Below the pieces are notes generated by a model, which did not search any database, was not told the origin of the DNA, and saw only the letters and a list, made by a program, of their open reading frames with translations. DNA of 64,000 bases. Source: a virus (taxonomy: Duplodnaviria > Caudoviricetes). The position numbers and the translations under genes are program-made. The stretch is from the IMG/VR virus record IMGVR_UViG_3300035498_000877, positions 160,001-224,000 of that record; one strand, written 5' to 3'. This document shows positions 27,643-57,560 of the stretch, piece after piece (the stretch's first letter is position 1; every line of letters starts with the position of its first letter).

Positions 27643-28803
27643 ATGGAAAACAAAAATGTAGGCATTATAGGAATTGGTAACTGTGGTTGCCAAATCGCAA
27701 ATTTAGCCGAGAAGAAGTATCCGACTCTATTTGATTGTATTTATTTTAATACATCATCAGATGATCTCGCTATGGTATCAACAGATACTGGACTAAAGTT
27801 CAAATTAGGAGATGAAGACATTAAAGGATCAGCTAAAATTAGATCTAAATCATTTGAGTATTTTGAGAAAGAACTTCCTCAAATTATATCAAACGAAGCA
27901 ATCCAAAATGTAATTCTAGAAAAGAGTCATATATTTATCATTACTTCTGTAGCAGGTGGTACAGGATCCGGAGCTGCACCAGCTATGCATAAGATAATGA
28001 GTAATCTGTTCCCTGACGTGAATTTCATTATGGTGGCTATTCTTCCTAAACAGGAGTCATCAGAATTAGAGTTGGAAAACTCATTAGAGTTCTTAGAAGA
28101 CCTATATGAAAATCTTGGAACAGATATCACATATATGATGTATGATAATGAGACTACATGCAACGAGAAGGGATCATTATCTTTAACTAAAGTAAATGAA
28201 AATGTAGTTGAAGATATCAGGATTCTTACAGGTGTAGATAATTATCCAACACCATTTGAGAGCATTGATGCGGCAGATATGGATTCACTTCTTACAACTC
28301 CTGGCAGGTTATTAGTTGCCAGAATAAATAAAGGTGTAACTGAGAAAGCTATGGAAGATAATAAACTTGATGAGATCATTATTAAGAGCATTAAGTCTTC
28401 ATGTCATGCAGAGACTGACAGGAATAAGAAAGTTGTTAGATGGGGAGTTGTAACATATTTCACTGAAGATGTGAATAATTTGTATGTTGCGAGTTTGGAT
28501 GCATTGAAGGAATTCTTGGGAACTCCAGTAGAAAGATTTAACCACAATGCAATCAATTCTGGCAAAGAGGATATGAACTTTATATATCTGATTGCCGCAG
28601 GATTATCACCAATTAATGATAGAGCTGTTAAGATTAAAGAAAGAATTGAATATCTCAAAGAACAGAAGGCTGATAATAATAGTTATGTATTATCAGGTAC
28701 TTCTACAAACACAAATGAGAATAGAAAGAATCTTAATAACAAAACTAATACTTCAGGTGAAATAAATTCACAAGAGCTTTTAGCTTCACTGAGAAGAAAA
28801 TAA
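27643..28803 (+). CDS. tubulin/FtsZ-family GTPase (PhuZ/TubZ-like)
   Basis: GIGNCGCQI, NTSSDD, the tubulin signature AGGTGSG, YDN, and the T7 loop SIDAADM. Confidence 0.9.
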   Translation: MENKNVGIIGIGNCGCQIANLAEKKYPTLFDCIYFNTSSDDLAMVSTDTGLKFKLGDEDIKGSAKIRSKSFEYFEKELPQIISNEAIQNVILEKSHIFIITSVAGGTGSGAAPAMHKIMSNLFPDVNFIMVAILPKQESSELELENSLEFLEDLYENLGTDITYMMYDNETTCNEKGSLSLTKVNENVVEDIRILTGVDNYPTPFESIDAADMDSLLTTPGRLLVARINKGVTEKAMEDNKLDEIIIKSIKSSCHAETDRNKKVVRWGVVTYFTEDVNNLYVASLDALKEFLGTPVERFNHNAINSGKEDMNFIYLIAAGLSPINDRAVKIKERIEYLKEQKADNNSYVLSGTSTNTNENRKNLNNKTNTSGEINSQELLASLRRK

Positions 28804-31856: not shown

Positions 31857-31987
31857 TTTTTATCGCATATTATATCAGATTAATGATATATTCTAATAGT
31901 GTAATAAGATAAGAGTAAGTTATCATTATTACATAAAAACTGAATATAGTATATTAATTATCTAAGGAGGATTTAATCATGAGTAAT
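31857..31987 (+). repeat. promoter-leader-RBS cassette, copy B
   Basis: Near-identical inverted copy of 19901-20031; ends ...TCTAAGGAGGATTTAATCATGAGTAAT. Confidence 0.95.
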
Positions 31988-44620: not shown

Positions 44621-44941
44621 TACAAATAAGAGGGAGAGGATAGTCCTCTCCCTCTATATTTTATTTTTAATTATATATTATAAATATAATATGATAAATG
44701 ATTTTTAAGTTAAAAGTAATGATATTAATTCCAAGTTTGATGGTATTGAGAAAACCGATATATTTCTCCTACAATAACCAATAGTGGTGTAGTAAATCTC
44801 GTGACAGCGGCTAATCTGTATATATCATTATACCGAAATATTTTTGTAACTTGATAACAATACTTATTGAACGGAATAATTACATAACCTGCAATATGTG
44901 ATTATCAAAAAATATTATAATATAAGGAGATTATAAAGAGA

Positions 44942-46141
44942 ATGATTTTAGTATTCGACCAGCAGTGTATGGATAAACATCATACAACTAAAGAAGAACT
45001 AACATCAATGTGTAAATCTGGTGTAAGAAATATTCCAAGAGAATTTTATGACAGAACAGGATTTACTCGAGATGAATTGATTATGTATCATCATATGATA
45101 ATGGCTAAGAATATTGCTGAAGAAAAAGCTAGAGAGAAAGCTGCTAAAGAAGTAAAACGTAAAGAGAAAGAAATTGCTAAAGAAAATGAGGAAAAGCGTA
45201 AAGAAAAAGAGAGATTAGAATCAGAGTATAGGGAATATAAAATAAGGCATGCTAATAAACCACCTCAGCCTTTTACTCTTGAAGAATATCGTAAGTGGAA
45301 CCCGAATCCACAAATACCAAAACCAATTCCAATGTCTCAATCTAGGATACCAGAAATAAGAGCATTAGCAGCTCAACTTGCTGAAGAAGATGATGAGGAT
45401 CAGGATGATTTGATCAAGCATAATTTCTTTGATGAAGATGATGAGGATGAAGATGATGAAATAACAATTGACTTATCAGAAAATACTGAAATATTTGGTG
45501 ATGGATATGATTTTGAAATCATTGATGATGAGCCAAAATCTAAGAAGAAAAAGAAACATAAGAAAGAATCTAATATAAAGAAGTCATCTAAGAAGTCAAA
45601 GACTGAAAAAGTACAGAAACAATCAGAATTAAAGAAATTTGATATATTGCAGAAAATGGAGAGTACAAACATATTTGAGAAGAAAGCTGTAAAAGTTGAT
45701 AAGGTTGAGGAGTCAGTAGAGCAGCCAAAGTATCGTGAAAGTGATAAGAGATTATTAGAAGCTGGAATGAAAATGAATATAAGAAAGAAGGAGAAATTGT
45801 ATAAGAAGCTTCGAGATCTGGATCCAATTGATAAGAAAGATGTTCATAAGATTAATGATATATCAAAGAAGATATCTAAATGTAACAATAATATTGAAGT
45901 TATCGAAAATGAAATTGGAACTTCCGAGAAATCAATGAAAGAAGAACTCGATTATGAATTACATGGAAGCAGATGGGATCGATTCAAGAAAGAGTTCAAG
46001 AAAACTGCAAAAGCAGTTGGAAAATCAGTTTATAAATTCACTAAGAGATGGGGCGGTGTTTTGATACAAGCAGCTGCAACTATTGTTTCAGCTATAGCAA
46101 TATGCAAAGGTGGTGCTGCATTAGTACCGCAAGGATCATGA
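44942..46141 (+). CDS. highly charged protein with acidic and Lys-rich tracts and a C-terminal amphipathic/TM anchor
   Basis: RBS TAAGGAG; DEDDEDEDDE, KSKKKKKHKK, and a hydrophobic C-terminus. Confidence 0.8.
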   Translation: MILVFDQQCMDKHHTTKEELTSMCKSGVRNIPREFYDRTGFTRDELIMYHHMIMAKNIAEEKAREKAAKEVKRKEKEIAKENEEKRKEKERLESEYREYKIRHANKPPQPFTLEEYRKWNPNPQIPKPIPMSQSRIPEIRALAAQLAEEDDEDQDDLIKHNFFDEDDEDEDDEITIDLSENTEIFGDGYDFEIIDDEPKSKKKKKHKKESNIKKSSKKSKTEKVQKQSELKKFDILQKMESTNIFEKKAVKVDKVEESVEQPKYRESDKRLLEAGMKMNIRKKEKLYKKLRDLDPIDKKDVHKINDISKKISKCNNNIEVIENEIGTSEKSMKEELDYELHGSRWDRFKKEFKKTAKAVGKSVYKFTKRWGGVLIQAAATIVSAIAICKGGAALVPQGS

Positions 46142-52815: not shown

Positions 52816-53207
52816 AAACAAACTATGTCCGCTTAAAACTTCTTTAATTGCTGGGAGTTCCTTAGAGCTTTAATTACTATTAATAGTAATAATATTAAAG
52901 ATTGGATAATCAGCAGTTAAGCCAAAGTGGAAAATTCATCGACTATCGACCAGCTATGGTATTCGAGAAATACGGTACCAATATAGTCAGTAGAGTACAC
53001 CCAAAGTGAATGTGGGCCATAAACCATGGAATGGAGTGGGGTAACTGGAAACGGGAAGTAGTTGTACATCGGTAATAGATGTACACTAAAGATATAGTCA
53101 CAACGATCAATAGATCACTCAACCTTGAGATAGGTTGTTGTCCTATGAGAGTAGGAGAAGCATTAAGTTGCTGCTAGTATGTTGCGAGTACTAGTGTAAG
53201 ATAATTG
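52816..53207 (+). mobile_element. group I intron (IA-like, 392 nt, no ORF) in gyrB
   Basis: P1 GCGGAU/GUCCGC with a U.G splice site; P10 CUAU/AUAG; P AATTGCTGG, Q AATCAGCAG, R TTCATCGACTA, S AAGATATAGTC; terminal G at 53207. Splicing restores DAD-IDG in frame. Confidence 0.93.
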
Positions 53208-56223: not shown

Positions 56224-56778
56224 TTAAATAAATTGAGTACATTCTTTTTTCTGTTTACCAAGTTTCTCAAATCTCTTTTTAGTTTTATATCCAGAGGCTC
56301 CTAATATCTTATCCATACATGGTTCAAATGCTTCATTCATTTTTTCCATAAACTTATCTGCATATCTATTTACATTTGCAGATTCCTGTTGAAATCCTTC
56401 CATTACTAAATCTTCTTTTACTTTATTAATGGTATTTGTCAATGACTTAATTCCTTCAGTATATGATTTAACAAATGACGGCAATTCAGAATATTTTAAT
56501 TTACATTCTGAAAATAGTTGAGTATTAATAAATGTATCAACGCTTTCATTTATTGTTTCATCAGATGATCTATTATCATTATTTACATTTTTAATAATGT
56601 AATCACAATAGCCCTCAAGATATTTGCTAAATGTATCAAATGATTCTTGGATATTAAATCCTGGAAGTGTTTGTCCAGTTATATTTAAACCAAAATCTTT
56701 TGATATATCATCAATAAATTTCATCGACTCTTCATCATATTTTTCTAAGAAATCTTTAATTGCATTATCTATTATCAT
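56224..56778 (-). CDS. possible internal head protein
   Basis: Helical protein with repeated xxE-(S/A/G) sites (IQES, INES, VMEG, QQES, MNEA) resembling prohead-protease sites. Confidence 0.4.
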   Translation of the reverse strand: MIIDNAIKDFLEKYDEESMKFIDDISKDFGLNITGQTLPGFNIQESFDTFSKYLEGYCDYIIKNVNNDNRSSDETINESVDTFINTQLFSECKLKYSELPSFVKSYTEGIKSLTNTINKVKEDLVMEGFQQESANVNRYADKFMEKMNEAFEPCMDKILGASGYKTKKRFEKLGKQKKECTQFI

Positions 56779-56919
56779 GAGATATAACTCCTTTCTAAAA
56801 ATTTTAATAATTTTATTTAAACGTTGTTACATATATATTTAAATAGTTGACAATATTTCATTCTTTGCTTATTTCCCCATTCACGGAGAATGCAATATTT
56901 TCAATTATATATTATTATA

Positions 56920-57252
56920 ATGAATGAAGATAAGTATTCAGTTTGTTATGTATTAAAATAATTATCGATGTCAAAAATGAATTACCAATTAGAATCCAGC
57001 TCCTTAGATATGAATTCTGTACCTCTTAGATAGAAAATATATTTTATGGATATAAATTGGGATTTGTTTATTATGACTATTTCCTCTAAAGTAAAAAGGT
57101 TTTAATGTGAGCACTTCCTTTCACGATTCATTATCTTCATTCATGCATTCACCTATGGGCAGATATCTTACTCGTATCTGCCACTCCAAAGTATTCCGCA
57201 TTAACTGTGACGCTAGATATTAGATCGCGCGTCATGGTTAAGCGGGATTTTT
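56920..57252 (+). ncRNA. candidate structured non-coding RNA (long rod + two 3' hairpins + U-tract)
   Basis: TATATATT promoter at 56906; a 14-bp ATGAATGAAGATAA/TTATCTTCATTCAT closing stem; further interrupted helices containing G.U pairs; no credible ORF. Confidence 0.65.
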
Positions 57253-57314
57253 AATCGTTAATTTGACACATTGTGTCTTATTATAAAATAAAAACATTTA
57301 GGAGGTAACAGATT

Positions 57315-57560
57315 ATGAAGTATCCAGAGAAATATCTTTTGGAAGAAGGAGTAAGCCAACCAGAGAACACTACTATAGTGGAGTGTGAGATTTGTCACAG
57401 AAAGTTTGCAATTCCCAATGATGAATTGGAAAAGATGACCGCAAAAATATGTGAGAATGAGGCTTGTATTAAGGCAGCAAATGAGCAGGCAGCTGCTCAA
57501 ATTAAAAATCTGATGAAAGCAAATACATCGGATGATGTTAAGACAGCATTAGGAAATTAA
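57315..57560 (+). CDS. small Zn-ribbon protein
   Basis: CEICH...CENEAC; RBS AGGAGG. Confidence 0.75.
   Translation: MKYPEKYLLEEGVSQPENTTIVECEICHRKFAIPNDELEKMTAKICENEACIKAANEQAAAQIKNLMKANTSDDVKTALGN

Follow-up and report, generated by a model that had tools for sequence, protein, structure and literature searches.

Does a long gap without open reading frames (ORFs) in the genome of a jumbo phage hold an RNA gene, and what would such an RNA do? We considered this question for a window of 64,000 nucleotides (nt), the whole stretch of DNA that was analysed, which covers positions 160,001 to 224,000 of the IMG/VR virus record IMGVR_UViG_3300035498_000877 (Duplodnaviria; Caudoviricetes; G000 below, 289 kb, 30% GC). 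The gap occupies window positions 56779-57314 and separates two divergent genes at 56224-56778 (- strand) and 57315-57560 (+ strand). Its length of 536 base pairs (bp) agrees with the ~535 bp given in an earlier note, in which a 6S-like decoy or a translational repressor had been proposed for this locus. We find that the gap probably specifies a functional + strand RNA of ~331 nt that is made early. As a whole, the reading that we tentatively favour, with somewhat less than even confidence, is that this single-copy early RNA serves as a multi-target translational regulator.

An early promoter and a terminator delimit the predicted RNA

The elements that define the RNA and its fold are as follows.

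56898-56921, + strand: early promoter of the virion RNA polymerase type, with a T-run, AATTATATATTAT at 56903-56915 and then the 6 nt TATAAT
56922-57252, + strand: predicted non-coding RNA of ~331 nt, from G56922 at +1 to the U-run, placed by promoter spacing and terminator
56922-56933, + strand: 5' arm of the closing helix, GAAUGAAGAUAA, pairing perfectly with 57131-57142
57131-57142, + strand: 3' arm of the closing helix, UUAUCUUCAUUC, forming the 12-bp helix with 56922-56933
56970-57075, + strand: central imperfect helix of the rod (GUCA...UGAC, AAAUGAAUUACCAAUU/AAUUGGGAUUUGUUU, AUCCA/UGGAU), present in the minimum-energy and centroid folds
57158-57182, + strand: hairpin 1 of the fold, with a GC-rich stem of 8-9 bp and the loop CUUACUC
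57194-57252, + strand: hairpin 2 and U5, a probable intrinsic terminator, whose ~20-bp stem ends in GCGGGA and is directly followed by UUUUU at 57248-57252

The early promoter of the Bacillus jumbo phage AR9 has been defined experimentally as AAATATATATTAT-(6N)-G+1, and its user is the virion RNA polymerase (PMC5312081). Positions 56903-56915 match this consensus at 12 of 13 positions, and G56922 stands at +1 after a further 6 nt. The promoter reported earlier as "TATATATT" at 56906 belongs to this longer motif, the core of which is AATTATATATTAT at 56903-56915 with the predicted start at G56922. With one mismatch allowed, the 13-mer has about 45 copies in the genome, mostly intergenic and with a ribosome-binding site (RBS) and ATG next, while a looser pattern of the core gives 103 sites, many of them intragenic. 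Convincing copies are followed by leaders of ~15-80 nt, whereas the copy in question lies 393 nt ahead of the next ATG. The promoter is conserved in the relatives' contigs L004, L006, L008, L010, L028 and L035. The phage also has a PhuZ-like tubulin match (window 27643-28803) and a split RNA polymerase beta-like ORF (Rpb2_6, 397 amino acids (aa), above the Pfam cut-off, G000 234595-235416, - strand), both of which fit a jumbo phage of the nucleus-forming AR9/phiKZ type with split multisubunit RNA polymerases.

At the other end, the U-run adjoins the stem of hairpin 2 on the + strand only. This terminator was missed by a simple scanner because its loop and stem limits were exceeded. From the promoter spacing and the terminator, the RNA is predicted to start at G56922 and to end near 57252, and it is single-copy in the 289-kb genome.

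A coding role of the gap was rejected. The gap has two ORFs of at least 30 aa, one of 36 aa (- strand) and one of 38 aa (+ strand); both start with GTG and have no RBS, and indels shift their reading frames in L004. No Rfam family was found at the gathering score in the whole window, including any intron family at a proposed gyrB group I intron (52816-53207), nor at E <= 10 with permissive filters on 56700-57400, and ARAGORN gave no tRNA or tmRNA. Retron, CRISPR, tRNA/tmRNA, riboswitch and intron readings were set aside for want of an Rfam or ARAGORN match and of a partner gene. Searches with the gap and its surrounding 6 kb (blastn) and with the two flanking proteins (tblastn) yielded no match in 50,697 GenBank phage records, and IMG/VR scans with both flanking proteins likewise gave no matches. 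IMG/VR scans with two more distant structural proteins and a family alignment returned only relatives of 28-60% identity (L002, L003, L012).

Fold, strand and constraint

The perfect 14-bp inverted repeat 56920-56933/57131-57144 described in the earlier note is present, and the predicted start of the RNA falls inside it. The resulting closing helix encloses a 197-nt, AT-rich imperfect rod, and its duplex energy is -17.0, compared to -10.5 ± 2.1 for shuffled arms. Both the minimum-energy and the centroid fold combine the 12-bp closing helix with a multi-branched set of small hairpins and the central imperfect helix. Most of the pairings listed in the earlier note recur: the helices GTCA..AAATGAATTACCAATT/AATTGGGATTTGTTT..TGAC and ATCCA/TGGAT are in the minimum-energy fold, and the two GC-rich hairpins are found at 57158-57182 and 57194-57247, followed by U5. 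The proposed pairing of TGTTATGTATTAAAAT with GTTTTAATGTGAGCA (56945-60 with 57100-14) is absent from that fold, in which these segments form small local hairpins.

Measured against shuffles, the segment 56915-57262 folds with a z-score of -4.4 on the + strand and -3.3 on the - strand. For the whole gap the values are -7.35 (+) and -2.64 (-), the former being the second most extreme among 26 strand-specific folds of the 13 largest gaps. Folding no better than that of shuffled controls, which the earlier note had named as grounds for dropping the candidate, is therefore not observed for the RNA or for the gap on the + strand.

The 93%-identical relative L004 provides a comparison of the gap itself. 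Its changes inside helices preserve pairing only if the RNA is read from the + strand: A-U becomes G.U at 56920, and G.U becomes A-U at 57066 in the central helix, at 57174 in the stem of hairpin 1 and at 57207 in hairpin 2. A double compensatory change from A-U to G-C at 57163/57177 lies in the stem of hairpin 1, the loop CUUACUC of which is the same in both phages. A + strand preference had been suggested earlier from G.U pairs, and both the asymmetry of the fold z-scores and the L004 substitutions bear it out. The promoter direction, the terminator that is present on the + strand only, the G.U pairs with stronger folding, and the L004 substitutions all favour the + strand as the one that would be transcribed.

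The divergence from L004 amounts to 4.1% in the rod and 3.4% in the terminator hairpin, compared to 13.7% in the upstream spacer, 11.9% at third codon positions of the neighbouring gene and 19% in hairpin 1 with its linker. Five further contigs from different samples encode the identical protein; their gap sequences do not differ from that of the window and contribute no variation. Contigs identical at the locus derive from SRR11792607, SRR11792099 and JGI 3300035499, 3300035495 and 3300043104. The sole intermediate relative (P0004, 74% identity) was outside the gap comparison.

Loops complementary to phage ribosome-binding sites

Four C/U-rich motifs of the rod are complementary to RBSs of the phage.

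57000-57010, + strand: anti-RBS loop 1, CUCCUUAGAUA, the exact complement of UAUCUAAGGAG; CUCCU is unpaired at ~0.99
57022-57032, + strand: anti-RBS loop 2, CCUCUUAGAUA, which nearly repeats loop 1 and complements the same RBS with a one-base bulge; unpaired
57076-57087, + strand: anti-RBS motif 3, ACUAUUUCCUCU, partly unpaired (0.5-0.6)
57112-57124, + strand: anti-RBS loop 4, CACUUCCUUUCAC, a small hairpin loop, unpaired at 0.8-0.9

These C/U-rich motifs, which had been described earlier as unpaired, are real and mostly accessible. In the fold ensemble, the probability of being unpaired is 0.5-0.99 for the four motifs (~0.9 for their cores) compared to 0.39 for the RNA overall. They are also enriched: the interior contains 7 pentamers complementary to the Shine-Dalgarno (SD) sequence, compared to 1.6 ± 1.5 for shuffles that preserve dinucleotides (p = 0.003). 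In the genome, no more than 0.7% of 221-nt windows reach 7 such pentamers.

The motifs differ in the leaders that they match. The 11-mer UAUCUAAGGAG, complemented by loop 1, has seven copies in the genome, of which six are located at RBSs and one is the antisense copy in this RNA. The six genes with the RBS UAUCUAAGGAG(G) are those at 155460, 191979, 232902 and 249710 on the + strand and at 179909 and 38674 on the - strand, and most of them also have a promoter, a 5'-hairpin and a leader cassette in common. In motif 3, ACUAUUUCCUC (57076) is a perfect complement over 9-11 nt of GAGGAAAUAG(U), found at about -12 in ~19 translation initiation regions (TIRs). Loop 4 complements (GU)GAAAGGAAG(UG) over 9-13 nt in ~17 TIRs; its sequence resembles the 3' tail of the 16S ribosomal RNA (rRNA). 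Altogether, the target leaders form three classes (UAUCUAAGGAGG, GAGGAAAUAG and GAAAGGAAG) that account for ~40 of 270 TIRs.

At a perfect complementarity of 11 nt the RNA matches 16 TIRs, compared to 5.3 ± 2.7 for shuffles (the maximum of 200 shuffles being 16) and 3 for the - strand. These counts of exact complements were used because folding of the whole RNA with TIRs gave unrealistic duplexes with long loops. No stretch of the RNA longer than 17 nt recurs in the rest of the genome, so the TIR matches are seed-like and do not stem from a recent (inverted) duplication.

The following course of events would account for these data. The virion RNA polymerase would transcribe the RNA early, and most transcripts would stop at ~57252. 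The four C/U-rich loops (57000, 57022, 57076, 57112) would then pair with the SD regions of the three classes of phage mRNAs and possibly of host mRNAs, which would block binding of the 30S subunit and set the timing or the level of translation. The RNA would do so from a slot that holds partner RNAs of a Ro60-like protein in related phages (see below). With both the Ro60-like gene and its associated RNA hairpins absent, the RNA of the window phage presumably works differently from its syntenic relatives, and the match of accessible anti-RBS loops to classes of phage TIRs makes a multi-target translational regulator our best guess. The translational repressor of the earlier note thus stands as a plausible mechanism, given the accessibility and enrichment of the loops and their 9-13 nt complementarity to TIRs. 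Provided that the RNA is made, we regard anti-RBS pairing as an evenly balanced proposition. A more specific version is doubtful: here the RNA would carry an antisense catalogue of the RBS variants of the phage, including a loop that mimics the 16S anti-SD tail, would thereby control the translation of entire classes of phage and perhaps host mRNAs, and would have arisen in the slot of a Ro60 partner RNA after loss of the protein, while keeping the promoter, the closing helix and the position.

Several points weigh against the regulator. At 9-10 nt, the excess of TIR matches over shuffles is weak. TIRs of an AT-rich phage are similar to each other, so that any anti-SD word with U/A flanks matches many of them. 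The syntenic RNAs of L006, L008, L010 and L028 have no anti-SD enrichment, which is thus lineage-specific. L004 is the sole informative relative of this type of RNA; all four loops are unchanged in it, yet with ~6 independent changes in the rod this would occur by chance at about 1/4. The divergence of the locus is a mosaic that ranges from 0% to 19%, with 0-1% in some flanking genes, and recombination may account for part of the slower change in the rod, which is suggestive of constraint rather than proof of it. Because no early promoter lies between the terminator and the downstream 81-aa gene, the RNA may chiefly be the leader of that gene. Finally, a likeness of part of the - strand to the leader cassette offers an origin for some of the motifs that does not involve RNA.

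The slot in relatives and its Ro60-like gene

The genes and the spacer that flank the RNA are listed first, since their families define the slot.

56224-56778, - strand: gene for a 184-aa protein of the P0001 family, function not assigned; divergent neighbour
56779-56895, no strand: fast-evolving spacer that includes the RBS of the 184-aa gene, 13.7% diverged from L004 compared to 4.1% for the rod
57315-57560, + strand: zinc-ribbon-like 81-aa gene P0002, an ORF with an RBS downstream of the RNA

The P0001 family has ~100 cluster representatives in metagenomes, and its members adjoin the RNA slot in L004, L006, L008, L010, L028 and L035, which makes the family a synteny anchor. In L006/7, L008/9, L010/11 and L028-31, whose P0001 proteins are 45-50% identical, an ORF-free gap of 400-900 bp precedes the gene and has the same promoter on the same strand. 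The slot RNAs of the relatives are 290-750 nt in length and their sequences are unrelated to the interior of the window RNA. In L006, L008, L010 and L028, the 5' end pairs with a segment 280-640 nt downstream through a helix whose sequence is specific to the lineage (GAAUGAAGAUAA in the window, GAAUGAGAGA.. in L006, GAACAAAGGG in L028 and AUAUUGGA..AAGAUAAUC in L010). In four of five lineages, including the window, the energy of this closure is 3-5 standard deviations below that of shuffled arms; in L008 it is weak. The L006, L008, L010 and L028 RNAs fold with z-scores of -3 to -4.7, and the interiors are branched and, in L006, L028 and L035, GC-rich.

The RNAs of four of these lineages share a module of hairpins, AAGAC-NN plus (U/A)NACAGCAAU, referred to here as the "helix + ACAGCAAU" handle. 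Each RNA has 1-5 copies. The handle stems show compensatory changes in most copies, and the L008 copy has no closing partner. The RNAs with handles (290-640 nt, - strand of their loci, behind the early promoter) are located as follows.

L006, 4266-5000
L008, 2295-2692
L010, 4291-5000
L028, 2098-3000

In all four, the next gene on the same strand encodes a DUF2828/DUF7788 protein. The AlphaFold model of the DUF2828 protein (pLDDT 69) has Ro60/TROVE structures as all of its top 13 matches in PDB, over the full length and with E from 3.5e-9 to 1.5e-4, among them Ro60 of a Thermus phage and Rsr of Deinococcus. A profile of the DUF2828 alignment found no match among PDB sequences, and the relation to Ro60 comes from fold comparison only. 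The four RNAs therefore look like Y-RNA-like partner RNAs of a Ro60-fold protein, although they have no YrlA motifs and no Rfam match. Directly downstream of DUF2828 in L006, L010 and L028 lies a homologue of P0002, so the window lineage lacks exactly the Ro60-like gene. No Ro60, TROVE, DUF2828 or DUF7788 gene was found anywhere in the 289-kb genome, and neither the window gap nor the other intergenic parts of G000 contain the ACAGCAA handle module. The handle is thus present where the Ro60-like gene is present (L006, L008, L010, L028), and both are absent from the window phage. This co-occurrence is comparative support for a partnership of protein and RNA.

Other lineages fill the slot differently. 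L035 (43% identity) has a 750-nt RNA (L035:2600-3500, - strand, 38% GC, z-score -7.25) with a strong terminator and no ACAGCAA handle; its homologue of the 81-aa gene has a separate early promoter, and no Ro60-like gene is adjacent to it in the adjoining region of the 292-kb contig. From the terminator and the separate downstream promoter, the slot would be an independent RNA gene in that lineage. A conserved ORF of 53-56 aa (..EEQKR.EEEVQKYNE..ECEIR..) with an RBS and a terminator, and no RNA, was found in the equivalent gap of the more distant relatives L002 (1453-1656), L013 (2733-2894) and L014 (~90-260, + strand). Likewise, the relatives L013-L015 from a metagenome scan have no RNA and the small ORF of 53-56 aa in the gap.

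These comparisons raise the strongest alternative to a translational regulator, namely that the window RNA is a reduced or orphan descendant of the Y-RNA-like slot. It would then be a scaffold or decoy for a protein (host Ro60/Rsr, an RNase or a phage protein), or be decaying, and its C/U loops would be incidental. We consider this unlikely, if somewhat less so than the other alternatives. In its favour, RNAs with the same promoter, closed ends and handle hairpins stand upstream of DUF2828/DUF7788 in four lineages, the structural matches of DUF2828 are to Ro60/TROVE, and the 81-aa gene has its homologue directly behind DUF2828. Moreover, a stem formed by the paired ends is a hallmark of Y RNAs (PMC4201824). 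The bacterial and phage YrlA contacts Ro60 through the motif GNCGAAN0-1G near its 5' end (PMC4201824). The window RNA resembles Y RNAs such as YrlA in that a 12-bp helix (56922-33/57131-42) closes its ends around a variable interior. However, GNCGAAN0-1G and GGUCCGA are absent from the window RNA and from the RNAs of all relatives. The window RNA also lacks the handle and any tRNA-like domain, as ARAGORN detected nothing, no T-loop motif occurs in it and no Rfam match to YrlA or Y_RNA was obtained. Unlike YrlA, it has no Ro60 orthologue on the same strand within ~4 kb, nor in fact in the whole genome, whereas the L006, L008, L010 and L028 RNAs have a Ro60-fold neighbour on the same strand within that distance. 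The apparent constraint on the rod relative to its flanks also argues against simple decay. By context, a Y-RNA role fits the RNAs of the relatives and not that of the window.

A possible leader of the downstream gene

A little less likely than an orphan Y-RNA-like descendant is a role in the mRNA of the 81-aa gene, as its long structured 5' leader or as an attenuator. The early promoter would then serve the gene at 57315. The rod and hairpins would stabilise the 5' end of the mRNA and set the read-through of the terminator, and the short RNA might be a by-product. This is consistent with the lack of an early-promoter copy in 57253-57314 and of a clear terminator between the RNA and the next gene in L008 and L010. 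Early transcripts of the phage also often start with a hairpin GUAAUAA...UUAUUAC homologous to the 5' arm found here, and in phage 201phi2-1, 8 of 11 small RNAs (sRNAs) arise from premature termination in 5' untranslated regions (PMC11512511). On the other side, 393 nt far exceeds the 15-80 nt of the leaders behind convincing copies of the promoter, no alternative antiterminator pairing was identified, and in L035 the strong terminator and the early promoter of the downstream gene separate the RNA from that gene. A TTGACA box with an A/T-rich -10-like box also lies downstream of the terminator, with suboptimal spacing.

The sequence between the terminator and the 81-aa gene has two minor features. 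A small hairpin (GACACAUUGUGUC) is located at 57265-57277. The TTGACA box and the -10-like box, at 57263-57290, may form a weak promoter of host type.

Less likely readings

It is less likely still that the gap holds no functional RNA and represents a divergent control region made of rearranged cassette pieces, or a palindrome or origin that acts at the DNA level. The likeness to the cassette is the main point in its favour: 56902-56943 (+ strand) is homologous to the promoter and hairpin arm of the cassette, and 56965-56935 (- strand) resembles its second hairpin arm and ACTGAATA, marginally above shuffles. One segment illustrates this likeness.

56935-56953, + strand: the complement of this segment, TACATAACAAACTGAATAC, is similar to the cassette element ACTGAATA (local alignment score 33-37 compared to 21 ± 3.4 for shuffles, marginal)

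The segment may act as a promoter of the divergent gene or provide another antisense site. As no shared late-promoter motif was evident upstream of the structural genes, ACTGAATA as a promoter stays speculative. Also in line with a DNA-level role, the - strand carries RBS-like words without usable start codons, as the earlier note had stated for ATG, and AT-rich intergenic phage DNA often folds well, the z-score of the gap at G000 67522-67969 being even lower. Against it stand the strong strand asymmetry of the fold, the G.U-dependent pairs and the + strand-specific substitutions in L004, a terminator that works on the + strand only, and the presence of structured RNAs of unrelated sequence in the slot of six lineages. 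Moreover, the genome has no long paralogous match to the gap, and the likeness to the cassette is marginal against shuffles.

The gap at G000 67522-67969 lies outside the window. It comprises 448 bp at 18% GC, and has the most extreme z-score of the gaps tested (-9.1 on the + strand, with -5.0 on the - strand). Both of its strands contain promoter-like motifs. The gap may represent an origin or a control region with palindromes.

Transcription of the - strand, which would yield an RNA with several SD-like sites and no start codons that titrates 30S subunits or else a repressor or nuclease that binds TIRs, is highly improbable: four RBS-like words do match the contexts of real phage TIRs, but the right side of the gap has no leftward early promoter, the - strand has no terminator and folds more weakly, and the L004 substitutions would break its pairs.

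Equally improbable is the 6S-like decoy of the earlier note, which would sequester the host RNA polymerase with sigma-A/70. The predicted RNA shares a length of a few hundred nt, a largely helical shape and paired ends with 6S RNA (RF00013), it has an early phage promoter, and shut-off of the host would be useful to a phage. However, 6S RNA is ~190 nt in length, compared to ~330 nt here, and the Rfam covariance model of 6S gave no match at the gathering score in the window nor at E <= 10 on 56700-57400. The folds are multi-branched and contain no large two-sided central bubble like that of an open promoter. The syntenic RNAs of L006, L008, L010, L028 and L035 are branched with unrelated interiors, and it is the closing helix, not a rod, that is kept in relatives. 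By analogy to AR9 and phiKZ, phages with this promoter also transcribe independently of the host polymerase (PMC5312081).

Relation to known regulatory RNAs

The predicted regulator comes closest to the C/U-rich sRNAs of Firmicutes that mask SD sequences, such as RNAIII, RsaE/RoxS and FsrA. These are stable RNAs with their own promoter and intrinsic terminator that present C/U motifs in loops (UCCC/CCC) and use short seeds to reach many RBSs. In contrast, the RNA described here is encoded by a phage, is probably made by a virion RNA polymerase, has ~330 nt with sealed ends, and its targets are predicted. Its anti-SD words are U-rich (CUCCU, CCUCU, UUCCUC, CUUCCUUUC) and match the flanks of phage RBSs.

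Among giant phages, sRNA005 of 201phi2-1 and the phiKZ sRNA upstream of gp182 have been reported (PMC11512511). Like the present locus, they belong to jumbo phages and consist of a promoter and a premature terminator ahead of a gene, at a conserved position. Unlike it, they are shorter than 250 nt, have mapped ends and stand upstream of a tail gene in Pseudomonas phages, whereas the window RNA occupies a different slot, has predicted ends, shares no sequence with them and is outside Rfam.

The regulatory RNAs of jumbo phages have received very little study, and we know of none with an established mechanism. The present locus is a concrete and testable candidate, with predicted ends, four seeds and ~40 predicted target leaders in three classes. 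More generally, structured RNAs that differ greatly between gut jumbo phages occupy one syntenic slot with a virion-polymerase early promoter, and most of them are coupled to a Ro60-fold protein. If true, the anti-RBS mechanism would give phages a new means of timing translation, and if the RNA is indeed an antisense RBS catalogue, an RNA gene would have changed its mechanism while its promoter, closing helix and position persisted.

Other leaders with the early promoter

A recurrent leader cassette was found ahead of at least six genes whose products have no family match. It consists of the early promoter (GATATATTCTAAT), a G at +1, a 5'-terminal hairpin (GUAAUAAGAUAA..UUAUCAUUAUUAC) and the elements AUAAAAACUGAAUA, UUAUCUAAGGAGG and ATGAGUAA. 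Its sites are as follows.

Window 31890-31981, + strand
Window 19998-19907, - strand
G000 232810-232904
G000 38760-38672, - strand
G000 137665-137560, - strand
G000 35970-35880, - strand

The 5'-terminal hairpin GUAAUAA...UUAUUAC starts several other predicted early transcripts. The word AGAUAAG also occurs within the first ~20 nt of several of them, including the RNA of the locus (56922-56940), the cassette hairpin and the L035 RNA, with AAGAUAA in L010; it may be favoured in the initially transcribed region or serve as a binding site. The segment at window 44669-44941 contains a second copy of the early promoter, TTAATTATATATTAT, with +1 near 44688, and then ~250 nt without ORFs ahead of the gene at 44942, and is another candidate for a long leader or a small RNA.

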